Shown here one piece after another: positions 3,044 to 62,998 of a stretch of 64,000 nt of DNA. The notes beneath the pieces are model-generated. The model was not told the DNA's origin, made no database searches, and was given only the letters and a program-made list of their open reading frames with translations. Position 1 is the first letter of the stretch, and each line of letters starts with the position of its first letter. Source of the stretch: an uncultured bacterium (GTDB lineage Bacteria; Muiribacteriota; Ozemobacteria; Ozemobacterales; Ozemobacteraceae). The translations under genes were made by a program, and so were the position numbers. The stretch is taken from NCBI GenBank assembly GCA_964483805.1, contig CAZADH010000002.1, positions 1,163-65,162 of the forward strand. The letters run 5' to 3'.

Positions 3044-3314
3044 TGCCAACGATCATACCGTCAACGGGGCTGACGGGGCAAATCGCATGGGCGCTTCAGT
3101 ACGCCGGAAAAGGTCGCCAACCTCACGATTGAACATCCTTGATGCGGCCGATCTGCTGCCGTGATTTGCGCACCAGAGAGGCAACTCGGTGAGCCAACAC
3201 TGTCGCCGCACACCAGAACCAACGCACGGGCACCAGCACTGATGCAGCCTGGTGCGGCCGCTCGTCTCTTGGCTCTCCGCGCGTTTCGGCCCCGAGGGCT
3301 CCTGCCTCGCGCCG

Positions 3315-6300
3315 TCACACGACAACAGCAACCTCGTGTATTGCTTCACCCGCAAACTCGCCAGGAAGGCGCAATTCGGGGCGCGGCTCGCACGAGACCG
3401 AGGGGGCGACGACTGCCGTCGTCGGTCCATCGAGCATGATGCCGGTCGCGGTCGCCTGTTTGCTCGCGGCCTCGAGCAAAGCCGCGCGTTCGAGGGGCGG
3501 GCCGAGAACGGCGCGCGCCAGCCGGCCGGACTGACTGCCGACGAGGCCGACGACGGCGGCGCCGGATGCGATGCCGATGCCGGTCTTGATGGTGAACTGG
3601 CCGGCGCGACGGCGGCGACCGTTGAAAACGGTGAGGGCCGCGCGCATGGTGCGCGCGGCCTGCACGGCGCGCTGTTCGCGCCGGGCGTCGTCACGCCGGG
3701 CGTCGTCGCCTTCGACCCGGTCGACAGAGGAACAAGCGGTGGCCGTGGCGTGTGGCGATGGGGCATCCCCGGGGCGGTCCAGGAAAACGGCGAGTATGGC
3801 ATCGCCGATGAACTTGTCGATGGTGCCGCCCTGCTCGCGAATGCACCACTCCATGGCGGTGAAGTAGTCGTTGAGCATGGCGACGATCTCTTCGGGCGGG
3901 TACTGTTCGGACAGCGTGGTGAAGCCGCGAATGTCGGACGTCAGCACGGTGACATCGGCCAACTCGCCACCGGGCGCCAGGGCGGCATCTTCGTCGCGGC
4001 CGACGACCTGCAATACATCGTCGGACACGAAGCGGCTCAACTGCTCGCGTTCGCGCAATCCCTGGGCCATGCCGTTGAACACTTCGGCCAGGTGGCCGAA
4101 CTCGTCGTTCTGGGCGAGCACGAGGCGCCAGCGGTAGTCGCCACGTGCCGTCGCCCGCATCGCAGCGAGAAACGTCGGCAGCGGCCAGGTAAGCAGACTG
4201 GCGACACCGCCGATGACGGTCAGGGTGATGCAGGACAAGACGGCGAGCAGGCCAAAACCGAGCGACATCGCTCCACCCCAGCGTGCCGTTGCAGCGACCG
4301 GCGCCGACCAGGCGACACCCCGGTAGTTGGCTTCGACGAAGAAACGGGGGGCCAGGACATCGGGCCGGGGCGCGGTCGGGTCGGCCAGCAACGCGCCGAT
4401 GCGTTGTTCGAGGCGCCGCCGCGACAGGTGACGCGGCTCGGTGCCGTGCAGGGCCTCGATGAAATACCGTGTATGCCAACCCAGATGCACCTCGTCGAAA
4501 GCGAGCGGCCGGCTCATCGTCGAGAGAGTTTCGGGAAATCGCTCACACAGCTCGGGGATCTGCTTCAACGCACGCGCGCGCAACGCCCTGGTGAGGGCGC
4601 TAAGGTAACGCTGGTTGCATGCATCATTGCCGCCGATGAGAAAGGCCAGTCCGACCACGGGGCCCGCCCGCACACGATGTGCGTAGTGGGCGTTTGCCGC
4701 CATGGACGGCGGCCCGGAACGCAGTTTCGGGCAGTGCAAACGACCCGCCCGCGCGGAGCTACCGCAGTGCAAGGCGGCGTTGTTTTGGGGGCCTCGAAGG
4801 GTGCCGTTGCTCCGCGGTGCATCGGCGCCGTGTGCCGTCAAGAACCCGCGCTGAAGCCCTGCATCGGCTGTCGAGGGTCCTGGCCGAGGCTCCTGGAGAA
4901 TCGCGATGCCTTCCCACTGGTCGGTGTTTCCCAGCAGGCTGCGGTGCATGCGATTCGGCGCCGCCAGCATCTGGCCGTAGTAACTCATGTCGAGAAACTG
5001 CTCGGCAATGCTGCGCGCGAGAATCGTCTGCGTCTCGAGGCCCGTGGTTCCCGAGCGCGGCCGAAACACGCCGAGTTGGGTCATGGTTTCCTGGGCCATG
5101 GTGCGGGTGATCGTCGACATTTTCACGGCTTCGCTGCGCCCTTCTTCGCCATAGTCAGACCAGAACCACTCGCGACCATCGGCCGCGTAGAGGAACATCG
5201 AGCGGCACAACTCCTCGCGCTCGATGATCCGCCGCATGGCTGATTTGACCGCGGCGGTCGACGAGGCCATCGACCCGGTCGAGATCAGGACCGCAAGCCG
5301 TTCGTTCCACCGGCGCAACCGGGCGGCCCACTGGTGATTGGCAATGCTGAGCCCGCGGTCGATGCGTTCGAAAGTGCGCTGCGCCCGATCGCGCACCTGT
5401 TGCGGCACCACGGCCTGGCGGGCCTGCTCCCAGGCCACCGACATGGCGACGAGGCCGAGCACCGGCAACGCCAGGCCCAAACCGAAGGCCACACCCATCT
5501 TGGTGCGCAGGTTGAGCCCTGCGGGCAGGCCGAACCACACGAGACGCACCGAGATCACCGTAGCGAAGGCGAAATACAGCCATCCCAGGCACGACAGACC
5601 GGGCAACCAGTCATGCCAGGGATGACGCCAGAGGGCCCGGGGGGCGAACACCGCCAGAGCAAGCCGGGACGCAGCCGTGCGGGGCGAGCCATACGTTGTA
5701 TGACGATCGACGCGGCGAATGTCGCTGCGGAAGCGGGTCGGCAACCGCGAGTAGTAGACCATACCGGCCTTGGTATCGAAAAAACCGCAGTGCGTTCCCG
5801 CCGGTGCCCGCACCAGACCGCGGCGAAGCGGCGGGTTCGACGACCGCGCCGCCAGATTTGCCATTTGCCGGCTCCGATCGACGCGACCGCCATCGAGAAT
5901 CGCCACATACATGGCATCGAACTCCGCGTGGATGCGCCGACCTTTGGGAATCGAGGAAACCCACCCGGCAATGCCGTGCAGAACCCGCATCGGCCGGAAC
6001 GCACTCAGGAGCATCTGGTTCTCGGGGCGCATGCCGGTGATGCCGGCGCCGCGCCCGACCAGTTCCTCGAACAGGCGTTGGCCGTGAGCAAAGTAATGGT
6101 CCTCGGGATTGGCACCGGCCTTGTGCACGATGCTGCGTACATGCCACGGAACGGCAATCTCGCGCATGCGGCGAAGCACCGCTGCCGTGGCAACTCCCCT
6201 GGGCGCCACCTCCGGATTCCACCATGTCCAGGTCGTCTGTGGTTCGGCCGCCAAAAACCACAGCGCCACCACGGGCATGCCGGTATGACGCTCACACGCC

Positions 6301-6668
6301 TCGCGAACGCGGGTCAGGTCGGCCGCCGAGCAGGAGCGCCAGCGGGCGACCTCAGTGGCGGTGGCGTCCTCGTGCATCCCCAGCTCGCGATTGAGCCGCC
6401 GAACGAACGGATTCGCGCCGGCACCGACAGCCGTTTCGGCCTCGAACTCGACCATCTCACCGGTAAGGTTCTGCCGACACAACACCCGCAACGCGTTCTC
6501 TTCATCGACGACCAGTTTGTTGATCCAGAAGCGCAGGGCCACCAACGGGATGAACACGAGCAGGAGCCAAACGACGACGAGACCGCCCGCGGCGATCGGC
6601 ACGATGCGAGTTACCGCGGGAGCCGCAGCATCGAGCAATACATCGTCTGTATTCTCGAGGCGGGTCAC
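3315..6668 (-). CDS. membrane sensor class III nucleotidyl cyclase (cyc2): multi-TM sensor, HAMP, CHD cyclase
   Basis: C-terminal SDIRGFTTLSE ... IDKFIGDAILAVF cyclase motifs follow a HAMP-like helix (FNGMAQGLREREQLSRF). Start reassigned to GTG 6668, with AGGAG SD 7 nt upstream and a GTGA overlap with the stop of the upstream gene. The track start at 6764 would overlap the upstream gene by 100 nt. Asn/Arg catalytic residues are replaced (VLGPPLERAALLEA). Confidence 0.8.
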   Translation of the reverse strand: MTRLENTDDVLLDAAAPAVTRIVPIAAGGLVVVWLLLVFIPLVALRFWINKLVVDEENALRVLCRQNLTGEMVEFEAETAVGAGANPFVRRLNRELGMHEDATATEVARWRSCSAADLTRVREACERHTGMPVVALWFLAAEPQTTWTWWNPEVAPRGVATAAVLRRMREIAVPWHVRSIVHKAGANPEDHYFAHGQRLFEELVGRGAGITGMRPENQMLLSAFRPMRVLHGIAGWVSSIPKGRRIHAEFDAMYVAILDGGRVDRSRQMANLAARSSNPPLRRGLVRAPAGTHCGFFDTKAGMVYYSRLPTRFRSDIRRVDRHTTYGSPRTAASRLALAVFAPRALWRHPWHDWLPGLSCLGWLYFAFATVISVRLVWFGLPAGLNLRTKMGVAFGLGLALPVLGLVAMSVAWEQARQAVVPQQVRDRAQRTFERIDRGLSIANHQWAARLRRWNERLAVLISTGSMASSTAAVKSAMRRIIEREELCRSMFLYAADGREWFWSDYGEEGRSEAVKMSTITRTMAQETMTQLGVFRPRSGTTGLETQTILARSIAEQFLDMSYYGQMLAAPNRMHRSLLGNTDQWEGIAILQEPRPGPSTADAGLQRGFLTAHGADAPRSNGTLRGPQNNAALHCGSSARAGRLHCPKLRSGPPSMAANAHYAHRVRAGPVVGLAFLIGGNDACNQRYLSALTRALRARALKQIPELCERFPETLSTMSRPLAFDEVHLGWHTRYFIEALHGTEPRHLSRRRLEQRIGALLADPTAPRPDVLAPRFFVEANYRGVAWSAPVAATARWGGAMSLGFGLLAVLSCITLTVIGGVASLLTWPLPTFLAAMRATARGDYRWRLVLAQNDEFGHLAEVFNGMAQGLREREQLSRFVSDDVLQVVGRDEDAALAPGGELADVTVLTSDIRGFTTLSEQYPPEEIVAMLNDYFTAMEWCIREQGGTIDKFIGDAILAVFLDRPGDAPSPHATATACSSVDRVEGDDARRDDARREQRAVQAARTMRAALTVFNGRRRRAGQFTIKTGIGIASGAAVVGLVGSQSGRLARAVLGPPLERAALLEAASKQATATGIMLDGPTTAVVAPSVSCEPRPELRLPGEFAGEAIHEVAVVV

Positions 6669-9600
6669 GACGGCACTCCTGCCAGTTCGAACACCGAGAT
6701 GGCCTGGGCCTTGCCCTTCACCGCAATGGCCCCGAGTCCGGCGAGAGTGAAGCCCTCGTTGCAACCGGCCGCGGTCGCGGCATCGAGGACGATCCCGGTG
6801 GCAACCGCCCGACGGCTCTCGCTCTCGAGGCGGGCCGCGAGGTTCACGGTATCGCCGATGACGGTGTGATCGATGCGACGCAGGCGCGAACCGATGCGTC
6901 CCGAGATCACCACGCCGGTCGCCATGCCGATTCCCAGAGACAAGGGCGGATCATCGGGCGTCACGGCCCGACGGCGACGGTCGAGATCGGCCAATGCAGC
7001 CCGCATCGCCCACGCGGCCCGGGCCGCCCGCACGGCGCTATCGTCTTGCGGACCGGGGGAAAACACGGCCATCACCGCATCACCGATGTATTTGTCGATA
7101 CTGCCACCATTGCGGGTCACCGCCGCCTCGGCCAGCGGAAACCAAGCGTTGAGCAGGTCGATGATCCAGCCCGGCGACCGCCTGGCCAACAGACCCGAAA
7201 AATCACGCAGGTGGGCGAACAACACGGTGGCGGCGCACCGCTCGCCGCCGGGGGCCAGATCGGCCCCGGTGCCGGCCTGCACCGTCGAGAGAACCTCAGC
7301 GGAGACGAAACGGGTCAGGCGCAAACGTTCGCGCAATCCCCGGCACATGTTGTTGAACTCGCCGGCGAGCTGGGCGAACTCGTCACGCGTGTCGCAACGC
7401 AGCTCGACGTCGAGCAATCCCTCGGTCACCCGGGTTCCGCCCTGCGACAGAACCCCGATCGGCCCCACGAAAACCCGCTCGAGATAACGCACCAACACAT
7501 AAAGCAATACAACACAGTACAGCGCGAGAGCGAGCAGCAACAGACGCTGGTTCCACACCTGCACCGGGCTGTCGGGTTCGACCAGAGCGACCGCGACCCA
7601 GGGAACGCCGTCGAACGACTGGACCACACCTACACCGCCATCGGCCGCCGGCAGGACGACGGCGGCCCCGGCCCGCGCCTCGAGAAGGCCCTCACGCGCC
7701 ACCTCGGCCAAAGCCCCGTCGTGCCGGGCCGAGATCGGCCAACACTGCTGGGGCTCGAGCTGCGGGTGATCGGCATCGGTGATGCGAAAGAAAGCGATGC
7801 GATCACCCTGGCGACACTCGAGTTGCTCGGCAAACGGCGCGGCGCGACGCCGACGCGCGAAATAGTCGTCGGCCGATCGTTCGGTGCGCTGCAACGTGAA
7901 CAACTCGGCCACGGGCAACCGGTCGCGCCGCGAGTCGGGGAAAACAAGAAACTGCAAGACGCGGCAGTTCTTCAGGCCACTGAAGCCGGAATCGGCCGGC
8001 GCGCCGTCGTCCATCACCAGGGCGCGAACATCGCCCACCCCGATGTTCTCGGCAATCGCCCATCGCGACCGGGTCAGATACGACGGCGCCCCGGGGCGCC
8101 CAAGGAGTTGCGGCGTAAATATGCCGTATTCGGCCAGGCTGCGAATGGCAAACAACCGGCCGAACTCCCGCAACTGGTCGGCCGCCACCGGATCGAGCTG
8201 CACAGGGTCGGAAGCAGGCGCACGGACTGTCCATTCCTCGCCCGAGGCCGCGATCAGGTGCACGGCATCGAGACAAGCGGTCTGCTGCAGGCGCGCCAGT
8301 CGGGCCGCCACCCGCGACCGATCGCGCACGAGATCGGCCCCGAGCCGCTCACGCACACGCGAAATCGCGGCGGCATGAAAGTCGGCGTGCGCGGCCAGAT
8401 CGGTGCCGACCACACCGATCTTCTCGCGAACCTCGTTGAGTCGTCGATCGACGTCGAGTTGGCGCGCAAAGCCGTGCCACGCCACAGCCACCAACCAGAA
8501 GCCCACGATGGGAACGACGACGGCGAGGCCCGTCGCCACCGCGAGCTTGCCCCAGATCGACAACGGCAGACGCACATCGTGCCGGGCCAACCGCCACAGC
8601 AGCACCGCGATCGCCAGGGCACCCAGGCCGAGCGCAATTCTGACCCACGGCAGCAGCGGCCGCAGCGGATGCACGAGACTCGCCAACGGCCGCCACACCA
8701 GCATGACGGGCGGTCGCGATCGGGGCCCCGGTCGACCACCCGAAGTATCGGCCCAACGGGCGGTGGTGTCGCGGTGCAACGGCCAGGCAAGTGCGTAGAT
8801 GTGCCGCGAACGGACGAACCGGGGCGACATGGCGGCCACTCTGCGGGTCAGGCGCCAGTTGGCGCCGCGCCGGTGCCGGCCCAGCCACAATCCGGCCGGC
8901 AAATCGGCATCGCGCAGAATCGCCAGGTAGCCACCGACGATCGGCGCGTGCGGATGATCGGAGGCCGGCAGGAAGCGGGTGTAGATCCAGAGCGGTCCGC
9001 CCCCGAACTTGGGCGAATACATGCCGACCACGGCCCCCCGGGGACTGCGTGCCGACGCATACTCGCCCAGCATGCTGCGCAACAGGCGATCGGCCATGGC
9101 CGGCGTCACGCGCTGCGCCGCCGCGACCGCACCCGGATCGGCCCAGGCCTGTCGGGTGCCCAATCCACCCATGAACTGCAGGATCTGCCGCGCAGCTTTC
9201 TGCGACGGCCGATTCAGGGCGGTAAAATACTTTGTATTGCCATGCACGATGACGTCGGCACCATCGGAACCGGCGACAAACACCGCCAGAGGCTCGGTTC
9301 CGAGCCGTCTCGACAACGCCGGCACCAATCGCCGCGCCCAGTGTTGAGCCGGGATCGGTCCGGACTCCGACGCCGCGAAGTGCCAACTGCGCACCCGCTC
9401 CGGATCGGGCCAACCGACGTCCTGTTCGGCGCTGTGCAGCAGACCGCGCAAACCGGTGGCCGGCTCGAGGGCGGCTGCTTCACGACGGGCCTGCGCGACC
9501 ATCTCGCTCTGCACGGTCGCGAGCAGATCCTGTTCGACCCGACCGATGATCGAGACCACCGCACGTTCACCGACCACCAGCGGAACCACGAGGCCCAAGA

Positions 9601-9701
9601 GCCACGCACACACCAGGACCCACGCGCGCGGACGCGCCGGCGACAGGGGGGTGCTCGCCGCGGTCGATCCGACATCATCAGGACGATGCATCGATGGCGT
9701 G
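6665..9701 (-). CDS. membrane sensor class III nucleotidyl cyclase (cyc1), paralog of cyc2-4
   Basis: HAMP (FNNMCRGLRERLRLTRF) plus cyclase motifs IDKYIGDAVMAVF and TVIGDTVNLAARLES are present. The first metal-binding Asp is replaced by His (VLFAHLRDFSG). Start taken at ATG 9701 (MHRPDD..., signal/TM follows); the track ORF extends to 10303 without support. Confidence 0.8.
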
Positions 9702-10002
9702 TTTCCTTCGAACGCGCTGGGGATACGCGTAGGGTTCAGAGACAGACGGCTGGTTCCGGGACGATCGATCGGGTCGTTTGCACTGCGCGAACCTGTCGTT
9801 TCGCGCCGCCTCGCCAGGGTCTGCGCGCCCTCCTGGCGCACCCTGGCACGCCCCTCCTGGGGCAGTCCGTGGCAGCAAACGCCCACTTCGCGCATCGGGG
9901 CAGCGGCACCGTCCAGGTGCCGCCCCGAAACGCGGCCATCCGTGGCCCCGGTCCGTGCGCTCGGGTCGGCACAGCAGGTGCGCTGGTGATTTTCGCCGAT
10001 TT

Positions 10003-10031
10003 TTGCGTCGCCGTCCATCCCCTGGTACAAT
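10003..10031 (+). promoter_or_regulatory. sigma70-like promoter TTGCGT-17-TACAAT upstream of the CHAD/HD genes
   Basis: Hexamers at 10003-10008 and 10026-10031 with a 17-nt spacer. About 85 nt upstream of the CHAD gene start codon. Confidence 0.4.
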
Positions 10032-10117
10032 CGCACGAAGACTTGTTGCGACCCGCCGGTCATGTGGCCGACTATACATACCGCGTGCATACGGCGAGGC
10101 AGAAACGGAACCGCCGG

Positions 10118-11270
10118 CATGACGACGAAACGCCCGCCCGCTCCTCGACGAACCGCATCGACTCCGGCCCGGAGCACGCCCCGCCGCGCCACCCAACCCC
10201 GGCCGGCGCCGGCCGCCCTCGACCGCCCCGGCTCGGTGGCCGCCCAGGCCCACGAAATGCTGATGCGACGCCGCGACGCGGTGGCCGCCGAACTGCAGCG
10301 CATCCTGGCGCAATGGGATGCCGAGGCCGTTCACGATCTGCGGGTGGCCTGCCGCCGCATGCGGTCGGCCTTGCGTGTTTTCGGCCCCCTGTATGAGCCT
10401 GGGGCCACCCGGCAGCTCGATCGTGGTCTGCGCCGCTTCATGCGCAAGTTCAACGGCCTGCGCGACCTCGATGTGCAGCTCGAGAACTGGGTCGAGTTGG
10501 CCGATGGGGCGCCGCGCGGGCTGCACGCCGATCTGCACCGCATCCACCGGGCGATGACGGCCGAGAAGGCCCAACTCGATCGGGAACTGCGGCAGGTCAT
10601 CACCGCCGAACCGCCACCGCTCGAGCTCCCGCCACGGGTGGGACCAAGGGGATCGGCCGCAGGTGCTTTGGCGCGGCTCCCGTTTGCCAGCGCGGCCGGG
10701 CGATTGCTCGACGGCGAGGTGCGCGAGTGCGCGGCGCGGGCCCGGGCGATCGACTGGCGCGACCCGGTGGCATCGATCGCGCCGTTGCATGCGTGGCGCA
10801 TCCAGGTGAAGCGGCTGCGGTACGGCATCGAGCATTGCAGCGAGCAACTGGGAAAGCTGGCGAAACCGCTGCTGACCTCGCTCAAGAGCCTGCAGGATGC
10901 CCTGGGCCACACCCACGATGACGACGTTTTTGCCGAACAGGTCATCGGTCGGTTGAAAGCACAAGAGAAGGCACGGTACCGCGGGGTGCGCGACGCCATC
11001 GCCGGCCTGCGCTGGCCCGACCCCGATGCCCGCGCCGTCTATGCTCTGGCCCATCGCGACGAGGTCGACGACACGGCCGCGTTGCTGTTTTTGCTGCAGC
11101 GACTGACCGAGCGACGCGCCATTCATGCCGCCCGCGTTCGCGTATTGCAGATGACCTGGCTGTCGACCGCGAACCTGACCGGCCTGCGACAGTGGTTCGC
11201 GAGCGGCAACTGCCCGGTGGTGTGGCGGCGGCTTCTTGCCGATGAATTAACCGGGTCGTCGTCGCGGTGA
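10118..11270 (+). CDS. CHAD domain protein
   Basis: Conserved-histidine alpha-helical repeats (HDLRVACRRMRSALRVF, LRDLDVQLE, WRIQVKRLRYGIE) are typical of CHAD. Start taken at ATG 10118 (MTTKRPP). Confidence 0.7.
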
Positions 11271-29513: not shown

Positions 29514-29525
29514 CGGTCTCGCTCC

Positions 29526-46902: not shown

Positions 46903-48279
46903 GTGCTGCGCGGCAACGACATGATCCAGTTGTTGGAACGCAAAGACCGCTTCGTCATTGACTGGGCGGTGGCTGTGTTGCGCGAAATCGGGCCGGAGCC
47001 GCATCCGCTCGAATCGGAACTGGTCGAGGTCATCAAAGGCACGGCCCTGCCTCTGACCCTCGCCGCCCTGTTGCCGGTCTTGCGTGACGAGAAGAACCCG
47101 CAATCGTTGCGTGACAAAGTGATGGCCAATTTGGTCGAGCGTGACCGGTTGATGCTGCGCTTGATCAACGCGTGCACGCGGGCCAGCCAACGTGAGCGAC
47201 TTCTCAATCCGCTCGCCGCCATGATGGTCGACGCGACCAGCGACATTGCCTGCTTCTCGGCGCTGATCCGGTTGCTCCTCGGGCATCGTGAATCGCGCGA
47301 ACGCCTGCTCGCCGGCTTCGACAGCCTGTCGCGCATCCAGCGTTGGAACGTCGTGGTCAGTCTGGAAGCGACCGGCGATCTGCAGTATCTGTCGTTGTTC
47401 ATTTCGGCCCTCGAAGACAGCGAACCCACGGTCGTGCAGGTGGCGGTGAAAGCCCTGGGGCGTCTGGGCGCCCACGCGGCAATCGACGAGATCATCGGCA
47501 AGCTCACCCATCCGCGCGAAGAGGTTGTGCTCAGCGCCGTGCGCACGCTCAGCGAGTTTCGTGACTCGCGCGCCACGCTGCCGCTCATGAAGCTGATGGC
47601 CGGCACGCGCAGCCATCGCGTCCGCGCCACGGTCATCGCCGCTCTGGGCGGCTTCGCAGAAACACGGACTATTCCGGTAATAACCCGGTATCTCGCCCAC
47701 GGTGACGAGCGGGTGCGTGCGAACGCCGTCTCGGCAATCAGCCAGAAGATGCTGGCCACGGGCAAGCAAGATCCAGAGATCATCAACCGCATTCGCGAAA
47801 TGCTCGGCGATCCCAACCATCGGGTGCGCGCCGATGTCATCAGCAGTCTGTGGCAACTGGGCCAGATCGACAGTCTGACCGAAATCACCAAGATGGCGGC
47901 CTCGACCAACGACGAAGAACGGGCGGCCGGCGCCTATCTGGTCGGGCGCCTCAAGCTTCTGCAGTTCAAAGAGATGCTGATCGGTCTGACCGGCGATCCG
48001 GTGTGGTCGGTGCGCAAACTGGCAGCATTGTCATTGTTGTCGCTTGGCGATGCGGGCAAAGCGGTGTTGAAGGGGTTGTTGTCGCAGGGCGATGAACGCC
48101 AGCGCCTGGTCGCCGCCTTCGCGCTGTCGATGGGCGGTTATCCCGACGCGCACGGCCTGTTGCTGTGGGCCTCGCGCCAGGGCGGCAGCGACGGCGCCCT
48201 CGCCACCCAGTTGTTGAGCCAGTTGTCAGGCACGCCCGTGGGTGCGGTCGCGGCGGGTGACATCGAATCCGACGGTTGA
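46903..48279 (+). CDS. HEAT (PBS-lyase-type) repeat protein
   Basis: Repeats ..VRANAVSAISQ.., ..VRADVISSLWQLG.., ..VRKLAALSLLSLGD... GTG start with GGGAGG SD 4 nt upstream. Confidence 0.75.
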   Translation: MLRGNDMIQLLERKDRFVIDWAVAVLREIGPEPHPLESELVEVIKGTALPLTLAALLPVLRDEKNPQSLRDKVMANLVERDRLMLRLINACTRASQRERLLNPLAAMMVDATSDIACFSALIRLLLGHRESRERLLAGFDSLSRIQRWNVVVSLEATGDLQYLSLFISALEDSEPTVVQVAVKALGRLGAHAAIDEIIGKLTHPREEVVLSAVRTLSEFRDSRATLPLMKLMAGTRSHRVRATVIAALGGFAETRTIPVITRYLAHGDERVRANAVSAISQKMLATGKQDPEIINRIREMLGDPNHRVRADVISSLWQLGQIDSLTEITKMAASTNDEERAAGAYLVGRLKLLQFKEMLIGLTGDPVWSVRKLAALSLLSLGDAGKAVLKGLLSQGDERQRLVAAFALSMGGYPDAHGLLLWASRQGGSDGALATQLLSQLSGTPVGAVAAGDIESDG

Positions 48280-51211
48280 CCCCACCCCGTTGACCGGCGA
48301 CGCCCACAGTTCTGCAGCCCCCCCCAAGGCGTTGCCCCCGTCTGTTCCAGACGACGGCGCGGGACACCGGTCACGCTGGCTGACCGTGCTCATCGGCTGG
48401 ACCATCGTCTACTGCTCGCTCGTGATCACGCCGGCGGTGATGTGCTATATTGTATTTACATCTGCCGCCGCCACTCGCTTCAATAGCCGGCTTGACGACG
48501 TGCGGCGCGACCTGGCGGTGCGCGGCGATCGTCTCGTGGCGCGCTGTGAGCGCGAGAAGGTCGTGGTGGGTCTCGTCGAGGGCCTGAACCGTCGCGGCAT
48601 CGCCGGTTTCCTGGCCAGGGCCCAGACCTGGCAGCGCCATCACCCGGGAGCGATGCGTTGGATCGCCTGGGATCGCACGGGAACGCTGCTCAAGATGCCC
48701 GACGAGTTGTCGGTGAACGGCAAACGTGCCTGGCAGGAGGTCGTACGCAAGATCTGGCATCCCGATGCCGGCAGCCGCACGACGGTGGCCGAGCGCGCCC
48801 AAGTCGTCGCGGGTTTGCAGCGGTTCCTTGGTCGGCGTCCGGTGGCCGGCACGCTGGTCGAGTCACCCCGGCGCCTGATCTCGACGGTCATCCTCGATCG
48901 GCCCTGTTGGTTCGTCTGGGCGCACCACCGGCCAGCACCCCACACGCAACCCGCACCAGTCGGCGATCCGCTCGGGGGGATTCTGCTGCAGGTCTTTCCT
49001 GAGAAACTGCCGGCCCAGTTCTGGATCGATCCGGTCTTGCGCCTGGCCGCGCGCGACCATGCCGACCGCCAGCCTCCGTTCGTCATGTTCGATCTGTGCG
49101 AACCGTGGCGCAATGTGGTGTCACCGTCGTTGGCCCGTCTTTCGCAGGGTTTCGTGCCCACGTTGCGCCGACGTTTTCTCGAGCGCAGCAGCGAACTGAT
49201 CCAGGTCGGTTCCTACATTGCTGTCCCGGTTTCGCTCGACGCGGCGGGCGACACCCCGCAGCGGCTGCTGGTGCTCGCCGACATCGCCGACCTGTACCTG
49301 GAGCGAGCCACCGCCGAGCGCCGATCCGGCCACCTCTTGCTGCTCTTCCTCGTCGCCACAGCAGCCGGTGGAGCATACTGGGGGCGAAGCGGCGGTCACG
49401 GGGTGTCGCTGCGGTTGCGGGTGGTGCTGTTGTTTGGCGCCGCCGTGTTGTTGCCCACGCTCGGCCTGGTCGTCGGCGGCGCCCAGCTCGTCCGGTGGGA
49501 GGACCACAGCGAACGGGCCGTCGCCATCGACATGCTGCAACAGTCGGCGCTGCGGCTGAACGCTCGCGGCTACATGTATTTCGAAGAATACGGCGAACGG
49601 GTCCGGGAGCGCCTGGTCGCCCGCATTACCGGGCTCACCCGGGAACAGGATCTGCTCGCCGCCCTGCGCACGGCCATGCGCCAGGGCCTGGGGTCGAGTT
49701 TCTTCGTTTCCAGACTCGATGGGGGATTGTGGACATCGGGAGGCCGCCGCCTTGCCTCGGGCCCTCTCGAAATGCTGCGTTTCGCCATGCGTCGCGAACA
49801 CAACGAGGACGTCAATCTGCTCGCCCAGAGCGTCGTTTCGCCGCCGGGGCAGAAAGCCGACGTGCCATGGGTGCCCCTGACCGCAACCGCGGGAGCGGTG
49901 GTGTCTCGCATCAACGCCGTGCGCATGCTGCGCCTGGGCGATGCGGAATACGCGGTATTGAAGATGGCCGTCACCATCAACTTCCGCACCCGCCTGGTCA
50001 TCGTGGTATTCGATCCCCACGACCTCGAACTCGATCTGGCGGCCCGTGCCAGTCTGAGTATGCGCCGGCGCGAACTGCGCTCGCCAACCGCGCTCGCGCC
50101 GCGGGTCCATTTCGTGGCGGCAACACCGATCGGCGGCTGTTCCTGGCTCAACGCCTCGCTCGGTCGCCAACCGGCGGTCGCCCGGGCCGTTGCCCTCGAA
50201 AACGAGACGGTGGGCCTCATCGACTGGGCCGGTGAGACTCAACTGTTCTTCGTGCCGGCCCGCGAGACGCGGGCGGTGTTGCGCCCCATCTGGTTGTTGC
50301 CCGACCGCGGCATCCGCGCACGCATGGAGCGGCGGTGGCAGTTGATCGTGCGCACCGCAGCGTTGACTTCGGTGGGCGCGATTGCGCTGGCGTTGGCGCT
50401 CGCGGCCGGCGTTCTCGGGCCGGTTCGCCGCCTCGACCAGGCCGTCGCCGCCGTCCGCGCCGGCGATCTGCACTCCCGGGTCGACGGCGTCACCCGCGAC
50501 GAGATGGGGATCCTGGCCATGGCCTTCAACGACATGGTCGGCCGGTTGCGCGAACGGGAGCGGATGAAGGCCTACGTCTCGGCCACGGTCCTGGCAGCCG
50601 TCCGCGACGACACCGTGTCGCGCGGCGCGAGTGCACGTTCGGCACGCGTCACCGTGCTGTTCTCGCACATCGCCGCTTTTTCCCAGATCGCCCGCACCTG
50701 GACCCCGGAGGCTGTGTTTTCCATGCTCAACAGCTACTTCGCCGGCGTCGAACCGGTCGTGCGTGAGCAGGGCGGCGACATCGACAAGTTCATCGGTGAC
50801 GCGGTCATGGCCAGGTTTTTTGGTGACGGTCAGGAACGGCAGGCGGTCAATGCCGCACTGGCAATGCGCCGGCACTTGAATACATACAACGTAAGTCGCC
50901 AACAGGCCGGGTTGCCCGCAATCAACATCGGGATCGGGATCAACACAGGGGAGGTCATGCTCGGCGATGTCGGCAGCCGCAACCGCAAAGACCTGACCGT
51001 CATCGGCGACGCCGTCAACCTTGCCGCCCGCCTCGAGGTAGTGGCGCATCAGGGCACGCACACGCGCATCGTCGTCTCGGCAGAAACGGCCGGACAGCTC
51101 GAACCGTCGCTGCGACTGGTCGAGTTGGCGGTCACCACGGTCAAGGGCAAAGACCGCCCCGTGCAGGTATTCGAAGTGGTCGGGCCGACCGACGCGCAGG
51201 TGCCCCAGTGA
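48242..51211 (+). CDS. membrane sensor class III nucleotidyl cyclase (cyc3); His replaces first metal-binding Asp
   Basis: HAMP (FNDMVGRLRERERMKAY) followed by VLFSHIAAFSQ ... IDKFIGDAVMA ... TVIGDAVNLAARLE. Start uncertain: the track GTG at 48242 overlaps the HEAT gene by 38 nt, and alternative TTG starts lie at 48290 and 48332. Confidence 0.8.
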   Translation: MRSRRVTSNPTVDPTPLTGDAHSSAAPPKALPPSVPDDGAGHRSRWLTVLIGWTIVYCSLVITPAVMCYIVFTSAAATRFNSRLDDVRRDLAVRGDRLVARCEREKVVVGLVEGLNRRGIAGFLARAQTWQRHHPGAMRWIAWDRTGTLLKMPDELSVNGKRAWQEVVRKIWHPDAGSRTTVAERAQVVAGLQRFLGRRPVAGTLVESPRRLISTVILDRPCWFVWAHHRPAPHTQPAPVGDPLGGILLQVFPEKLPAQFWIDPVLRLAARDHADRQPPFVMFDLCEPWRNVVSPSLARLSQGFVPTLRRRFLERSSELIQVGSYIAVPVSLDAAGDTPQRLLVLADIADLYLERATAERRSGHLLLLFLVATAAGGAYWGRSGGHGVSLRLRVVLLFGAAVLLPTLGLVVGGAQLVRWEDHSERAVAIDMLQQSALRLNARGYMYFEEYGERVRERLVARITGLTREQDLLAALRTAMRQGLGSSFFVSRLDGGLWTSGGRRLASGPLEMLRFAMRREHNEDVNLLAQSVVSPPGQKADVPWVPLTATAGAVVSRINAVRMLRLGDAEYAVLKMAVTINFRTRLVIVVFDPHDLELDLAARASLSMRRRELRSPTALAPRVHFVAATPIGGCSWLNASLGRQPAVARAVALENETVGLIDWAGETQLFFVPARETRAVLRPIWLLPDRGIRARMERRWQLIVRTAALTSVGAIALALALAAGVLGPVRRLDQAVAAVRAGDLHSRVDGVTRDEMGILAMAFNDMVGRLRERERMKAYVSATVLAAVRDDTVSRGASARSARVTVLFSHIAAFSQIARTWTPEAVFSMLNSYFAGVEPVVREQGGDIDKFIGDAVMARFFGDGQERQAVNAALAMRRHLNTYNVSRQQAGLPAINIGIGINTGEVMLGDVGSRNRKDLTVIGDAVNLAARLEVVAHQGTHTRIVVSAETAGQLEPSLRLVELAVTTVKGKDRPVQVFEVVGPTDAQVPQ

Positions 51212-54051
51212 CCCGCAACGACAAGACCGAACCGGCAAGAGTGCCGCTCTGGCAATGGTTTGTCTTGTATCTGCTCGTTGTTGCCCTGCCGTCGTGGATG
51301 GTCGCCGACTATTTCCGGGCGTTGTTTGCCGAACAGGCTGAGACCCGCAGCCAGATGGCCGCAGCCAAGCTTTCGGTCGATGCGGCGGCCGCCGCGCACT
51401 TCTTCCGCTCGTCGTTTCTGCTCGAGTCGCTCCTGACCCGCTCTGCCTGGCCCGAGGCGCGTTGGCCGCAGTTTGTCGAGGCGCTCGAACGTCGCTACCC
51501 AGGTGCCTTTCGCTGGATTCTCTACGACCGATCGCAGCAGATTATCCCCATCGTCCCGACGGCACGCCTGCCCGGCGGCCCGGGGTTGTGGCATCGGGTC
51601 GTGTCGAGTTACGCCATCGCTTCCATGTCGTTCTACCGGTTGCTCGACGCCCGCCTTGGCACCGATCCGCTTCTGGGCGAAGTGCAGCGCGCGCTCGGCC
51701 CCGGTTTTCGGTTCGAGAACCTTCTCTCGACTTCCAGGGGCGTGCTGTACGGCCCCTGGGAAGGCGAACCTGCCGTCATGGCCTGGTGGCAGGATGGTCG
51801 CGATGCGGCTGACAACATCGTGGATCGCGGCCGCTTGCGCGGGTTTTTCGCGGTCATGCGCCCCGGGCGCCTGCCGCCGTTGCTGCCGATGCGCCTCATC
51901 GTCAGGGGCCACGCCGCGGGCATGCGGCGATCGACCTCATCGTTGGTGGCGATCGACCCCGCCGACCCCCGCCGCTTCTACACCCATCCCACTGTTCCGC
52001 GCGAACCGGCCCTGGGCGAACGGCTCTGGACCGCCCATCGCCACCGCACCGCCGACGTTTTCCGCGTCGATCATTGGCTCGCCACCGCCGTGCCCATCCG
52101 CGAGGCCATGGCCGGCAGGGTTTTTCTCCTGCACGACCTGGCCCCCGGGGAACGGCAGTATCAATGGCAATACAACATATTGATGGTCATCCTGTTCGCC
52201 GTGCAAGCCATCGGCGTGCTGTTGCTGCTCTCCTGCTGGCGCCGCGGGGGGCTCGAACTCGGCCTGCGTTGGCGCATCATGAGTGCCCTCTCGCTGGCCA
52301 TGTTGCTGCCGCTCGGCGGCCTGTATCAACTGGGCGAGCGGATGGTGGCGCGCGAGTATCAGGTCCGCCGCGAACAACTGGCGGCCGGTTTGAGCCGGGA
52401 CCTGGCCTTGGTCATGCCACGGTATCGGGACTTCAGCAGTCGGTATGGCGCCGCTCTGCTGGCCTCACTGACACGCGCTGTGGCCGGCCCGTTGTCGGAG
52501 CGGGAGATCAGCACCCGTTTGCAGCGGTTCGTCAGCCGACCGGCCCACCAGGTTTCCGATTTTTACCTGAGCGACGCCCGAGGACGACTGGCCCGCAGCG
52601 GCCGCGAACAGTCAGACCGGCGGTTCAAGACCATTGCCCAGATCATGTTGTCGGGCGTCTTGCGCGACAATGGCGGCCCCACCGAGTCTTCGGCTTTCAA
52701 CGAGAGCATGCTCGAAACCGTGGCCGAGGTCGCCGAGAAAGACCGCCGCATGGACCAGTCGCTGCTGCGGGTAAACGAGTGGGGCCTGCACATGTTCATG
52801 CGCGACTCGCGCTACATCATTGCCCTGCTGCCCCGGGTCGACGGCACCATGCGATCGTTGCTCGTGCCGGTGAATCCGGCACTGGTGAAGGTTCGCTTTG
52901 CCAATCGCGAGTTCGTGCGCGGACTGACGCCGGAGTTGCAGGCCGTCGGGCTGAGCCGGGCGAACTTCACCTCGGACCAGTGGGGGCACATTCCCGCCGT
53001 GCCGGCCTTCTGGCAGAACGGCGAGATTCGCCAGGCCCTCGAAGATCGGCGGACGCAGCGCGCCGGCGAGTTCACGCTCAACAACGGCCGCTTCCTCTAC
53101 CAGACCGGCGCGCGGACCGCGTTGTTTCCTTACATTTTCGTGGGCGTGGCCCCCCTCGACCCGGTCGCGGCCGAGGTCAATCGACACGCATGGGCGTTTC
53201 GGGGTGCGGCCCTCTTTGTCACCGGCCTGGTGGGCGTTCTCGGCTGGTTATTGGCCGCCGGCCTGCTCGCGCCGATCCGTCGCCTCGAAGTAGCGGTGCG
53301 CCAGGTCGCCGCGGGCAACCTCGACGTCGAGGTGGCCGTGGTGGGCCGTGACGAGATTGGTCGCCTGGCCGAGAATTTCAACGACATGTTCCGCGGTCTG
53401 CGCGAGCGCGAGCGCATGCAGGCCTATGTGTCTCCGGCTGTCCTCGAGGCGGTGCGCGACGACGCCACCGCGGCGGGCCAGCAGGCGCGAACCTGCGAGG
53501 CGACGGTGTTCGTTGCCGATATCCGCTCGTTTACGACCCTGTCGGAGAAACATGGACCGCAAGCGATGTTCGCGATGCTCAACGAGTACATGACGGGGGT
53601 CGAGGCGTTGCTTCGCGAGCATGGCGGACGCATCGACAAGTTCATCGGGGACGCCGTCCTGGCGGTGTTTCTCGACCCAGGTCGTGCGGGCGCCCTCGAG
53701 GCGGTGCGGGCAGCATGGGCCGTCACCCGGTTCGTCGCCGAGTTCAGCACCCGCCGGCAACGGGCCGGGTTGTTCGGGGTGGGCGTCGGGGTCGGCATCA
53801 CCACCGGCCGCGTCCTGGTGGGCACGGTCGGCAGCGCAACCCGCAAAGATCTGGCCGTGATTGGTGACGAGGTCGAGCGGGCCGCGCAACTCGAAGCCGC
53901 CTCGAAACAGGGGCGTCACTCGCGCATCATTCTCTCGCCGGCCACCCACGACCTGGTCAAGGATGTAACTCGTTGTATTTCTCTTGCTCCCTCTCACGCC
54001 CGCGATGCCGACCTCGTCGCTTTCGAAGTGGTCGAAGCGCCAAGCGCTTGA
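51208..54051 (+). CDS. membrane sensor class III nucleotidyl cyclase (cyc4); Asps intact, Asn/Arg replaced
   Basis: GTG 51208 overlaps the TGA of cyc3 (GTGA). HAMP (FNDMFRGLRERERMQAY), then VFVADIRSFTTLSE ... IDKFIGDAVLAVF ... VIGDEVERAAQLEAA. Confidence 0.8.
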   Translation: MTRNDKTEPARVPLWQWFVLYLLVVALPSWMVADYFRALFAEQAETRSQMAAAKLSVDAAAAAHFFRSSFLLESLLTRSAWPEARWPQFVEALERRYPGAFRWILYDRSQQIIPIVPTARLPGGPGLWHRVVSSYAIASMSFYRLLDARLGTDPLLGEVQRALGPGFRFENLLSTSRGVLYGPWEGEPAVMAWWQDGRDAADNIVDRGRLRGFFAVMRPGRLPPLLPMRLIVRGHAAGMRRSTSSLVAIDPADPRRFYTHPTVPREPALGERLWTAHRHRTADVFRVDHWLATAVPIREAMAGRVFLLHDLAPGERQYQWQYNILMVILFAVQAIGVLLLLSCWRRGGLELGLRWRIMSALSLAMLLPLGGLYQLGERMVAREYQVRREQLAAGLSRDLALVMPRYRDFSSRYGAALLASLTRAVAGPLSEREISTRLQRFVSRPAHQVSDFYLSDARGRLARSGREQSDRRFKTIAQIMLSGVLRDNGGPTESSAFNESMLETVAEVAEKDRRMDQSLLRVNEWGLHMFMRDSRYIIALLPRVDGTMRSLLVPVNPALVKVRFANREFVRGLTPELQAVGLSRANFTSDQWGHIPAVPAFWQNGEIRQALEDRRTQRAGEFTLNNGRFLYQTGARTALFPYIFVGVAPLDPVAAEVNRHAWAFRGAALFVTGLVGVLGWLLAAGLLAPIRRLEVAVRQVAAGNLDVEVAVVGRDEIGRLAENFNDMFRGLRERERMQAYVSPAVLEAVRDDATAAGQQARTCEATVFVADIRSFTTLSEKHGPQAMFAMLNEYMTGVEALLREHGGRIDKFIGDAVLAVFLDPGRAGALEAVRAAWAVTRFVAEFSTRRQRAGLFGVGVGVGITTGRVLVGTVGSATRKDLAVIGDEVERAAQLEAASKQGRHSRIILSPATHDLVKDVTRCISLAPSHARDADLVAFEVVEAPSA

Positions 54052-60206: not shown

Positions 60207-61007
60207 GTGTTGTCGTTGTTGCTCCTGGGTGAAATCTCGGGCCGCGTCGGCATTCGCGCCATCGAGACGGCCGCACCGACCTGGCGACGGGCCAACCCCA
60301 GGCCACTGGTGATCGCCAATGCCGGCGGGCTGCTCGGCACCGCCGGGCTCACCCGCGACGTGGTGACCGGGCTTGCCGATGCCGGCATCGACGTGCTGAC
60401 CGTAACCCCACGGGCGGCGGCCACACCCCGCGCCCGCGCACTTCTTGCCGATGGTCACGGGATGGTCCGCCCGTTGAACGCACCCGCCGGGTTTCCCGGA
60501 TGCGGCACCCGACTGCTCGAAACCGCCCAGGGACGGCTGCAGTTCGCGGTGGTGCACACGTGGTCCGATTTCGACGGTCTCGATGATCCGTTCGCGGCGC
60601 TCGCACGCTGGAGCCAGAATCTGGCCGGCAACGATGCGATCCTGCTCGAGATCCAGGGCCAGGATGTGCGCGAGAAGATCGGCCTTGCCCGCTGGTTTCG
60701 CCGCACCCGAACGGCTCCCGTCCACTGGTTCGGCACCGGACTGGGCATCGTGGCCGGCGGGCGTGAGTTGACGCCGACAGGCATCGAACTGATCGATGTG
60801 GGCCGCTGCGGCGCGCAGGCCGGCGTGCTCGGCGAAGACCTCGATTCCTGGCTGGCACGCACCCGCGACCGCCGCCACGCCGGGCCAGTCGAGACACCCA
60901 ATGACGTGCGCCTCGATGGCGTCCGCCTCGCCCTCGATCGCCAGGGCTCACCGCTCGAGGTCGCACCATGGGCCTTTATCCCACCGAGCAAAGCGGTCGC
61001 CTCGTGA
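60207..61007 (+). CDS. YmdB-like (TIGR00282/calcineurin-fold) pseudo-phosphoesterase: all His/Asn metal ligands substituted
   Basis: Collinear with B. subtilis YmdB (LLLGEISGRVG ~ LFIGDVVGSPG; LVIANAGGLLGTAGLT ~ FTIINGENAAHGKGLT; DVLTVTPRAA ~ DAITMGNHTW; GMVRPLNAPAGFPGCG ~ NLVRPANFPEGTPGKG; DDPF conserved; WFGTGLGI ~ VVGTHTHV). The track ORF starts at 60120; the likely start is GTG 60207, with AGGAAGG 11 nt upstream. Confidence 0.6.
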   Translation: MLSLLLLGEISGRVGIRAIETAAPTWRRANPRPLVIANAGGLLGTAGLTRDVVTGLADAGIDVLTVTPRAAATPRARALLADGHGMVRPLNAPAGFPGCGTRLLETAQGRLQFAVVHTWSDFDGLDDPFAALARWSQNLAGNDAILLEIQGQDVREKIGLARWFRRTRTAPVHWFGTGLGIVAGGRELTPTGIELIDVGRCGAQAGVLGEDLDSWLARTRDRRHAGPVETPNDVRLDGVRLALDRQGSPLEVAPWAFIPPSKAVAS

Positions 61008-62998
61008 TCACGCGCGGACGCATCATTCTTATTGCTTTTGTATTGCTGTGGTGGCTGGCCTCGACCTGGACCGCCCACCAGGGCTGGCTGAACCGCACCG
61101 ACGAGATGCTCGAAGACATGCAGTGGCGCCTGCGCTGGGCGTTGGTGCCCGATCGAACGCCAAGCCAGGTGGTCACGCTGCTGATCACCCGCAACGATGT
61201 CGTGCAGTTGTCGTCGGCACACAGTTTCGAGTGGCCGCTCAACCGACGGTGGTTCGGGCGCGTCGTCGAGGTCCTGCAGCGGTGCCGGGCCCGGGCCGTC
61301 GGCTTCGACATGGCTTTTCTGCCCTCCACAAAGACCGATGGCGACCCGTTGTTCGCGGCTGCACTCGCATCGTGGCCCCGCCGGGTGGTGCTCGGCACCG
61401 AACTGCAGGGAACCCTGGCCGGTTCAGCGAATGATGAAGATGACGACGAGGAAGGCTACGGGCAGGGCCTGCGACCCACCCCGGTCAAGACCGAGTTCGC
61501 CTCGCCGGCCTGGGGGTTGGGCGCGTTCAATTTCCTCGAGAACCGCGAGGGCACCGAGATTCCGCGGGTGATGCCCCTCCACTTCCCGGTGAACGGCCGG
61601 TGCTTCCCCGGCCTGGCGCTGGCGACCTGGATGGCAGGCCAAGACCGATCGGTGGCATTGACTGCCGCATCCGGCGCTGTCCAGTTGGGGCCGACCCTCC
61701 GTTTTCCGGCCGAGGAGCTCATCCCCGACGGGCGAACGTTCTTCGTCGACCGTGTGCTGAGTCCGATTTTCCCGGAGAATCCGCATTTGCGCTTCCATGC
61801 CCTGTTCGCCTTTCACGATGAACGGGTCACCTTCGCTGCCTACAAAGACGCGGTCTCGTTTGCCCAGCTCGCGCTGTGCAACCCGAACGATGGCCCGGCA
61901 GTTGCTTCGCTGGCCCGCATTCTTGCCGACAAATATGTCTTGATCGGGGTCGGCGAGAACACCCTGGGCGACGTGATCCAGATGCCCAACCAGCCGCGCC
62001 GGGTTGCGGGGGTGATGCTGCACGCCGCCATGCTCGACGGCCTGACCCGCCACGAGGGCTTCCTGTCTCGTTGTCGATCGGCGGGGTGGCGCACCACCGT
62101 CGCCGGCATCGCCCTGGCCCTGTCGCTGTTCGTCCTGTTCACCCAGGCCCGTTTCTCACCGCTCCGCGGCCTCCTCACCGCGCTGGGCGGTTTCATCACC
62201 GTCGTCGTCACACTGTTCGCCCTGTTCTGTGGCGGGGTGCTGCTGCCGTGGTCGGTCATTCCGGTGACGTTCATCGGCGTGCTCCCCGCATGCTATTTCT
62301 ACGGGTACCTGGTCGAAGGTCGCGAGAAAGCGCAGATCAAAGACATCTTCAAGAAACAGGTGTCGCCCGAGATCGTCGATGAGCTGCTGACGCGTGCCGA
62401 CGAGATCATGGCCGCCCGTCGCCAGGAGATCTCGGTAGGTTTCATCGATGTTTGCGGCTTTACCAGTTTCTCTGAATCCCATTCACCCGAACGCGTACTC
62501 GTGCAACTTAATCACTACTTCAGTCGTATCATTCCGGACCTCATGCAACGACGGGTAACGCTCGACAAACTGATTGGCGACGCGCTCATGATCACGACCG
62601 GCGTTCCGTTGCCCGACCCGGCGCATGCGGTACGGTTGGTCGAGGCGGCCGCGGCGATTCGCAAGATGGTCGCGCAGATCAACACGAATCTTCCGCCTGG
62701 CTTCGAACCGTTTACCGTCAGTTGTGGTATTAACTCTGGCGACGCCATTGTCGGCAATGTGGGTTCGCGGGAACGCATGGAGTACACCGTCATCGGCGAT
62801 GTGGTGAATCTGGCTGCCCGCCTGCAAGGGGTGGCAAAGAGTCAGGAGATCGTCGTGGGGCCAAGAACCTACGAGATGACGCGTGATCGGTTCCAGTATC
62901 GCCCGTTACCCCCTCTCACGGTGAAGGGCAAATCCGAACCGGTGCAGGCCTACATGCTCCTCGAACCCGCAGACATCCAGCATTCGCAAACCCTGTGA
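60968..62998 (+). CDS. CHASE2 sensor domain class III nucleotidyl cyclase (canonical catalytic residues)
   Basis: N-terminal TM then CHASE2 region (VTLLITRNDVVQLSS..WPLNRRWFGRVVEVL..AVGFDMAFL). TM cluster. Cyclase GFIDVCGFT ... LIGDALMI ... YTVIGDVVNLAARLQG. ATG 60968 has a GAGGT SD; an alternative GTG at 61004 overlaps the upstream stop (GTGA). Confidence 0.85.
   Translation: MGLYPTEQSGRLVITRGRIILIAFVLLWWLASTWTAHQGWLNRTDEMLEDMQWRLRWALVPDRTPSQVVTLLITRNDVVQLSSAHSFEWPLNRRWFGRVVEVLQRCRARAVGFDMAFLPSTKTDGDPLFAAALASWPRRVVLGTELQGTLAGSANDEDDDEEGYGQGLRPTPVKTEFASPAWGLGAFNFLENREGTEIPRVMPLHFPVNGRCFPGLALATWMAGQDRSVALTAASGAVQLGPTLRFPAEELIPDGRTFFVDRVLSPIFPENPHLRFHALFAFHDERVTFAAYKDAVSFAQLALCNPNDGPAVASLARILADKYVLIGVGENTLGDVIQMPNQPRRVAGVMLHAAMLDGLTRHEGFLSRCRSAGWRTTVAGIALALSLFVLFTQARFSPLRGLLTALGGFITVVVTLFALFCGGVLLPWSVIPVTFIGVLPACYFYGYLVEGREKAQIKDIFKKQVSPEIVDELLTRADEIMAARRQEISVGFIDVCGFTSFSESHSPERVLVQLNHYFSRIIPDLMQRRVTLDKLIGDALMITTGVPLPDPAHAVRLVEAAAAIRKMVAQINTNLPPGFEPFTVSCGINSGDAIVGNVGSRERMEYTVIGDVVNLAARLQGVAKSQEIVVGPRTYEMTRDRFQYRPLPPLTVKGKSEPVQAYMLLEPADIQHSQTL

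Follow-up and report, generated by a model that had tools for sequence, protein, structure and literature searches.

The subject of this analysis is two pairs of overlapping genes, cyc1–cyc2 and cyc3–cyc4, in a 64,000-nucleotide (nt) stretch of an Ozemobacteraceae genome (contig CAZADH010000002.1; the whole stretch is called the window below). All four genes encode membrane receptor cyclases of class III, and in each pair the catalytic residues are divided between the two products, one partner keeping what the other has lost. Very probably, the two products of each pair are halves of one membrane-bound class IIIb adenylyl cyclase (AC) that functions as an obligate heterodimer, as judged by comparing the sequences with one another and with their relatives.

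Complementary loss of catalytic residues

The four cyclase domains were aligned to bPAC (PDB ID: 5mbh), to Pseudomonas aeruginosa CyaB (3r5g) and to a stand-alone CHASE2 cyclase of the window, which lies outside the pairs and serves as an internal control; cyc2 and cyc4 were separately checked against CyaB (3r5g) and a CyaB1-derived chimera (6fht). Six catalytic positions are given throughout in the order first metal-binding aspartate (Asp1), second metal-binding aspartate (Asp2), lysine, threonine, asparagine, arginine. The CHASE2 cyclase is fully canonical, as the initial annotation had stated: it reads DDKTNR (D494, D538, K534, T607, N614, R618) and is the only one of the five to carry the six residues of a homodimeric cyclase in one chain.

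The upstream genes of the pairs both read HDKTNR. A histidine, and not an aspartate, occupies Asp1 (H827 in cyc1, H809 in cyc3), and the other five residues are retained (D871, K867, T943, N950 and R954 in cyc1; D853, K849, T919, N926 and R930 in cyc3), together with the VKGK motif and a C-terminal lysine (K992 and K968, respectively). The combination of lysine and threonine, K867/T943 and K849/T919, is that of class IIIb. The downstream genes have the reciprocal pattern, DDKAEL in cyc2 (D912, D956, K952, A1053, E1060, L1064) and DDKAEQ in cyc4 (D771, D815, K811, A883, E890, Q894), in which both aspartates are present and the transition-state asparagine and arginine are gone. This division had been read from motifs in the initial annotation, and mapping of the six positions bears it out on both sides. 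It also goes further than had been noticed: cyc2 and cyc4 lack the specificity threonine (now alanine) and the C-terminal VKGK lysines, and the phosphate loop, kept as GFT in cyc2 and SFT in cyc4, is degraded to DFS in cyc1 and AFS in cyc3. Given the head-to-tail geometry of class III dimers, the C1-like proteins are cyc2 and cyc4, the C2-like ones cyc1 and cyc3; by sequence the residues are split as between C1 and C2 of the mammalian transmembrane ACs, the halves being separate overlapping genes in the window and not one polypeptide.

The genes of each pair overlap by a GTGA stop/start, again as first described, with the stop codon of the upstream gene sharing bases with the start codon of the downstream gene (Table 1); AGGAG lies 7 nt 5' of the cyc2 GTG. 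The start first assigned to cyc1, at 9701, is out of frame. The gene probably begins at the ATG of position 9691, which follows AAGGAAA, and position 10303 is merely the upstream limit of the cyc1 open frame. Scans for promoters and terminators gave counts no higher than in shuffled sequence.

Table 1. Positions in the window of the cyclase genes, their domains and adjoining features.
Feature	Position	Strand	Remarks
cyc1	6665..9691	-	1008 amino acids (aa); membrane receptor cyclase, C2-like subunit (open reading frame, Pfam, alignment to bPAC, hydropathy)
cyc1 HAMP	7346-7477	-	Pfam; residues 739-782; last membrane helix ~712-742 (hydropathy)
cyc1 cyclase domain	6698-7231	-	Pfam; PF00211, 58.3 bits
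cyc1 Asp1-position codon	7211-7213	-	
cyc2	3315..6668	-	1117 aa; membrane receptor cyclase, C1-like subunit
cyc2 HAMP	4050-4166	-	Pfam; residues 835-873; last membrane helix ~807-825 (hydropathy)
cyc2 cyclase domain	3459-3959	-	Pfam; PF00211, 38.0 bits
GTGA overlap, pair 1	6665..6668	-	cyc1 stop TGA shares bases with cyc2 start GTG
HEAT-repeat protein	46903..48279	+	458 aa; 3' end overlaps cyc3 start by 38 nt
cyc3	48242..51211	+	989 aa; C2-like subunit
cyc3 HAMP	50399-50554	+	Pfam; residues 720-771; last membrane helix ~707-725 (hydropathy)
cyc3 cyclase domain	50636-51163	+	Pfam; PF00211, 72.0 bits
cyc3 Asp1-position codon	50666-50668	+	
cyc4	51208..54051	+	947 aa; C1-like subunit
cyc4 HAMP	53251-53406	+	Pfam; residues 682-733; last membrane helix ~669-687 (hydropathy)
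cyc4 cyclase domain	53488-53961	+	Pfam; PF00211, 59.9 bits
GTGA overlap, pair 2	51208..51211	+	cyc3 stop shares bases with cyc4 start
CHASE2 cyclase	60968..62998	+	stand-alone, outside the pairs

Conservation of the split among relatives

Relatives were collected with phmmer, using cyc2 against 1.84 billion cluster representatives (clusters at 50% identity). The best 150 matches, which comprise cyc2 itself (identical to library protein P0312) and 149 relatives, are the basis of the counts that follow, and both the choice of cyc2 as query and the restriction to 150 matches bias this census. Among the matches listed are 68 single C1-like proteins (mostly ~1,000 aa long), 8 single C2-like proteins and 13 canonical ones. 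A further 57 are fusions of about 1,600–2,400 aa, in which the C1-like domain is central and the C2-like domain C-terminal; P0313 is the lone fusion in the opposite order. One fused protein, P0322 (1971 aa, from an Ozemobacteraceae metagenome-assembled genome, MAG), is canonical in both domains (DDKTNR twice), and another has a truncated second domain.

Among the C1-like domains of these matches, Asp1, Asp2 and the phosphate-loop FT are kept in 128/128, and the lysine, threonine, asparagine and arginine positions vary widely; those of asparagine and arginine are highly variable and often acidic, and the KGK position is a gap in 113 of the 128. The C2-like domains are the complement, with lysine, threonine, asparagine and arginine kept in 66/66 and Asp1 lost in 65 (Gly 38, His 8, Ala 7, Ser 6, Gln 4, Thr 2, against a single Asp). 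The invariance pattern points to purifying selection on exactly those residues that each type would give to one shared site, and these counts are the strongest evidence for the heterodimer.

The fusions carry a unit of about four transmembrane (TM) segments, HAMP and cyclase domain twice over. Both domain types are joined in one polypeptide in 58 related clusters among the matches listed, for example RCK77883.1 of Candidatus Ozemobacter sibiricus, and this natural fusion is independent ‘Rosetta-stone’ evidence that the two types act together. All relatives with an organism name are from Candidatus Ozemobacteraceae, including RCK77883.1 and RCK79080.1 of Ca. Ozemobacter sibiricus. Assembly GCA_964428355.1 has, on contig CAYRYU010000078.1 (2733-17074; locus L174), tandem genes for two fused HAMP-cyclase-HAMP-cyclase proteins of 2422 and 2357 aa which share base 10001; since the two-gene pair L173 is found in the same assembly, fused and split forms coexist in one genome.

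A scan with cyc3, taking one genome per species, was used to find related loci, and a cyclase-domain profile was then read at the six positions in all loci fetched. The nearest HAMP-cyclase relatives of cyc3 are 35–43% identical to it and come from Candidatus Riflebacteria/Ozemobacteraceae MAGs. Wherever adjacent same-strand cyclase genes were examined, they are reciprocally degenerate, in every locus. Seven further complementary pairs were found in Riflebacteria/Ozemobacteraceae MAGs and metagenomes, in both gene orders and with overlapping genes in 6/7. L040, L042 and L044 have the C2-like gene first (GDKTNR, then DDKTN[A/S]; 8–11 nt overlap), and L167, L171 and L172/L173 have the C1-like gene first (DDKTQ[H/Q/L], then HDKTNR; ATGA or 8-nt overlap). 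L169 encodes HEKTNR and then DDSVEA, with an Hpt gene between them and a receiver gene after. The survey of relatives for a paired arrangement that the initial annotation had called for thus yields seven more reciprocal pairs as well as the fusions. Among 150 loci with a single complete cyclase domain, Asp1 is lost in none and asparagine or arginine in 2, both of which belong to the C1-like family, so the paired degeneracy is not a product of chance.

Other searches added little. A word-indexed search with cyc1 returned matches to the cyclase domain only and no full-length relative. Profile searches with both domain types gave only proteins shorter than about 560 aa, with a few C1-like fragments and no further C2-like proteins among them, and a metagenome scan with the C1-like profile gave at least two family members (L081, L082), both truncated or frameshifted. 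P0450, the one canonical relative whose surroundings were checked closely, has no cyclase gene next to it. No synteny was found between the window and the related loci, and flanking genes consequently give no clue to function.

Two soluble proteins of the STAND/TPR type, P0004 (1299 aa) and P0027 (1231 aa), have two cyclase domains per chain. The first domain lacks asparagine and arginine (DDKVAA and DDKVAS), and the second keeps asparagine, arginine and KGK, with a degenerate phosphate loop. By sequence, these two proteins are a distinct bacterial instance of asymmetry within one chain.

Proposed mechanism and alternative explanations

In the proposed arrangement, the cyclase domains of the two subunits would pair head to tail. 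The C1-like subunit (cyc2 or cyc4) would give the two metal-binding aspartates and the GFT phosphate loop, and the C2-like subunit (cyc1 or cyc3) the adenine-selecting lysine and threonine, the transition-state asparagine and arginine and the C-terminal lysine, with the outcome of one competent site per heterodimer for conversion of ATP to cyclic AMP (cAMP). ATP is the likely substrate because lysine and threonine are the adenine signature of class IIIb. The other pocket, in which the histidine and aspartate of the C2-like subunit would meet lysine, alanine, glutamate and leucine or glutamine of the C1-like subunit, is predicted to be dead and may be regulatory, as is the forskolin site of the mammalian enzymes. 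The stop/start overlap would favour equimolar co-expression, and two unlike sensor halves would feed one catalytic centre, making an asymmetric receptor. We infer that the partners bind each other physically, that they make cAMP, that homodimers are inactive, and that the dead pocket and the sensors have the roles given above. The obligate cyc1:cyc2 and cyc3:cyc4 heterodimers foreseen in the initial annotation gain strong comparative support from the seven pairs, from the 57 fusions and from the residues conserved throughout each domain type.

Several points weigh against this arrangement. Five degenerate relatives (L082, L161, L164, L165 and L166) have no partner within their short contigs; each of these genes is frameshifted or has the contig end on one side. 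The sensor regions of the family are too diverged for alignment, and AlphaFold2, given the cyc4 sensor region with the four paralogues as the alignment, returned a model with a mean pLDDT of 35, which is unusable. As histidine can ligate metals, homodimers of cyc1 or of cyc3 might also keep some activity.

The partnerless genes would fit an alternative in which the degenerate domains are non-catalytic pseudo-enzymes that act as dimerization or nucleotide-binding modules, the pairs making no cyclic nucleotide at all; it also agrees with this that a scan of window genes showed no effector binding cyclic nucleoside monophosphates. We consider it improbable. The contigs of the partnerless relatives are short, and a full site that is invariant in trans (128/128 and 66/66 among the matches listed) is unexpected had catalysis been lost.

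Still less probable is that each protein is active as a homodimer, with histidine as a metal ligand, other residues serving the transition state, and adjacency reflecting tandem duplication. Divalent metals can be coordinated by histidine, and cyc3 and cyc4 are close paralogues, but Asp1 of the C2-like domains is most often glycine, followed by histidine, alanine and serine, which indicates no selection for metal binding. The variable and often acidic asparagine and arginine positions of the C1-like domains, most of which have also lost KGK, speak against it as well. In addition, the D300A and R376A mutants of Rv1625c, with a single aspartate or arginine changed, are each inactive singly but form an active heterodimer together (PMC4821796, citing Guo et al. 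2001).

Decaying duplicates or sequencing and assembly artefacts, for which the poor conservation of the N-terminal regions is the only, and general, point, are hardly credible given intact frames of about 950–1,120 codons, a strong third-position GC bias (0.76–0.81 in the four genes, in a window of 63.8% G+C) and the recurrence of the pattern across independent assemblies, in well over 100 clusters (50% identity).

Domain architecture and sensor regions

In all four proteins the C-terminal part matches HAMP and then Guanylate_cyc in Pfam, and the first ~700 residues have no match. The Guanylate_cyc scores (PF00211; Table 1) are all above the gathering cut-off of 21.9 bits, which places cyc1–4 among the class III nucleotidyl cyclases; relatives of the cyclase domains in the PDB are bPAC, CyaB and CyaC. 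HAMP directly follows the last TM helix and precedes the output domain, as in HAMP-coupled receptors, and a helical transducer lies between HAMP and the cyclase domain. Hydropathy gives a common layout with about four predicted TM segments per protein: a TM segment, an outside region of ~300 aa, a TM hairpin, a second outside region of ~300 aa, and a TM segment leading into HAMP. With lysine/threonine domains, about four TM segments per half and a HAMP linker, the proteins are not of the class IIIa type with a six-TM anchor.

The cyc2 protein has an insertion of ~26 aa (PSPHATATACSSVDRVEGDDARRDDARRE) after the Asp2 strand (residues ~975-1003, window ~3660-3750), which is not found in cyc1, cyc3, cyc4 or the relatives aligned alongside.

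The window also encodes a 953-aa membrane protein with HAMP and a SpoIIE (PP2C phosphatase) domain (15801-18662, + strand). Its N-terminus, ~650 aa, has no Pfam match and roughly equals that of the cyclases in size and layout. Near the cyclase pair in L167 there is also a SpoIIE protein of 974 aa (12205-13288). One kind of sensor may drive different outputs in the SpoIIE proteins and the cyclases.

Evolutionary history of the two pairs

The two pairs have different nearest relatives. In BLAST, cyc1 is closest to single C2-like proteins (43–51% identity) and cyc2 to single C1-like proteins (44–52%); cyc3 and cyc4 are closest to the canonical P0450 and P0456 and to both halves of P0322 (47–55%). 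Neighbour-joining (distance) trees were built on ~200 columns with 70–100 bootstrap replicates. With few relatives, cyc3 and cyc4 are sisters (97% bootstrap); with more, cyc3, cyc4, P0450, P0456 and both P0322 halves form a monophyletic group (93%). cyc1 clusters with the C2-like gene of L169 (81%), and cyc2 with a set that includes P0314, the C1-like gene of L169 (91%). The unfused C2-like domains are monophyletic in no tree. No sign of recent gene conversion between cyc3 and cyc4 was seen, windowed nucleotide identity reaching 73% at most.

On these trees, pair 1 would be an old, co-inherited pair, orthologous to that of L169, and pair 2 looks like a younger and separate reciprocal loss from canonical ancestors. 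As pair 2 lies within an otherwise canonical clade, the split seems to have more than one origin. The description of the two pairs as simple paralogous copies, on which the initial annotation had relied, does not hold, since pair 2 groups with canonical cyclases, and the parallel pattern looks partly convergent. Two features are not accounted for by this history: the motif LEAASKQ is common to cyc2 and cyc4, and histidine recurs at Asp1. The doubly canonical P0322 may represent the stage before reciprocal loss.

The stages of such a series appear to be present in living genomes, as canonical homodimers, a canonical-canonical fusion, complementary two-gene heterodimers in both orders, and membrane-C1-membrane-C2 fusions mostly of at least ~2,000 aa. 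The Ozemobacteraceae (Riflebacteria) would then have had a lineage-specific radiation of receptor cyclases, with an old pair 1 and a younger pair 2, that independently reinvented the design of the mammalian ACs; we think this rather likely, with less assurance than for the heterodimers themselves.

In L169, whose pair would be the ortholog of cyc1/cyc2, the Hpt and stand-alone receiver genes are at 4494-4868 and 8457-8873, a context that hints at a link to phosphorelay signalling.

Neighbouring genes

Directly upstream of cyc3 are genes for a 2305-aa TPR protein and then the 458-aa HEAT-repeat protein (39895-48279, + strand), the latter probably co-transcribed with pair 2. A second HEAT protein is encoded with a STAS gene (29139-32207, - strand), and in L165 a HEAT_2 protein (2375-3967) follows the C1-like cyclase; there could be a recurrent association of HEAT proteins with cyclases. 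A gene for a 2-thiouracil desulfurase/DUF1722 protein follows cyc4 (53984-55135, + strand), its longest frame, from a TTG at 53984, overlapping the cyc4 end by 68 nt, and a DUF1722-only paralogue (38786-39769) stands just before the TPR gene.

A YmdB-like metallophosphoesterase gene (60120-61007, + strand) overlaps the start of the CHASE2 cyclase at 60968. YmdB-family enzymes include cyclic-nucleotide phosphodiesterases, and the two genes could be a pair for synthesis and degradation. Two genes divergent from cyc1 (10062-12065, + strand) encode a CHAD-domain protein and one with Ppx/GppA domain III and HD; both the CHAD and Ppx/GppA domain families have a connection to polyphosphate. Possible defence or mobile-element genes (595-3049, - strand, and 37839-38789, + strand) are those for a Uma2-family endonuclease, for an AAA-ATPase_like/PDDEXK_9 protein immediately downstream of cyc2, and for a regulator resembling the AbiEi antitoxin.

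Comparison with known cyclases and significance

Bacterial ACs have been described as monomers that need to homodimerize (PMC4821796), the homodimers having two equal sites (PMC4821796, PMC9552081), and a 2022 review states that the class III cyclases of bacteria form homodimers and that no fused dimers are known there. In eukaryotes, asymmetric class III dimers are textbook knowledge, as membrane AC, soluble AC and soluble guanylyl cyclase (PMC8815786). The searchable full-text literature yielded no paper on class III membrane heterodimers that occur naturally in bacteria, whether encoded by two genes or fused. The initial annotation was right that the arrangement is unusual, but ‘rarely described’ understated the case, as that literature has it as unknown in bacteria.

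A close parallel in design is the mammalian AC1–9. There too, C1 gives the metal-binding aspartates and the phosphate loop, and C2 the specificity residues, asparagine, arginine and C-terminal lysine, leaving a single active site next to a degenerate pocket; the TM1-C1-TM2-C2 order is that of the fused Ozemobacteraceae relatives. However, the halves in the window are two genes and are class IIIb-like (Lys/Thr) and not IIIa, and each half has four predicted TM segments in place of six, as well as a HAMP and two large domains on the outside. No sign of regulation by G proteins or forskolin was seen, and the origin is independent. By sequence, cyc1–4 are class IIIb-like members of class III; they would work by the C1/C2 design of the mammalian enzymes, and they lie outside the class IIIa six-TM family.

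Soluble guanylyl cyclase α/β is likewise an obligate heterodimer of two gene products with one catalytic and one degenerate site, but it is eukaryotic and soluble, has an H-NOX/PAS/coiled-coil sensor and uses GTP. The engineered D300A and R376A forms of Rv1625c (Mycobacterium tuberculosis) have the same complementing losses of aspartate and arginine that occur here in natural proteins; they are artificial and derive from one gene, which in the wild type gives a two-site homodimer. Bacterial HAMP-cyclases that homodimerize (such as Rv3645 and Rv1319c) and the canonical Riflebacteria relatives (L001–L022, P0450) are the nearest in sequence, at 35–55% identity, and share the membrane anchor, HAMP and class IIIb domain, but have all six catalytic residues in one chain. 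Enzymes of the soluble AC type (mammalian sAC and the STAND/TPR proteins P0004 and P0027) combine two unlike cyclase domains and a single site in one chain; being soluble, without membrane sensor halves and not of two genes, they are a partial precedent. An enzyme of Chloroflexus is also said to have two cyclase domains in one soluble chain (Kobayashi et al. 2004). Lastly, chytrid rhodopsin-guanylyl cyclase and NeoR are two membrane receptor-cyclases with different sensors that are active only as a heterodimer. They are eukaryotic and keep all catalytic residues, so that heterodimerization is not forced in them by complementation of the active site (PMC8815786).

The asymmetric design would thus exist in bacteria as operon-encoded heterodimers and as fusions, and has apparently evolved more than once. 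If this is true, it contradicts the published statement that bacteria have no fused dimeric class III cyclases, and complementary loss would be a recurrent, predictable outcome for duplicated enzymes that are obligate dimers. The family would offer a natural series in which to study how obligate homodimers become heterodimers by reciprocal loss, and a bacterial, genetically simple model for questions about the mammalian cyclases, such as the purpose of the dead pocket and joint control by two sensor halves. For annotation, degenerate cyclase genes should not be called inactive before a partner has been sought.

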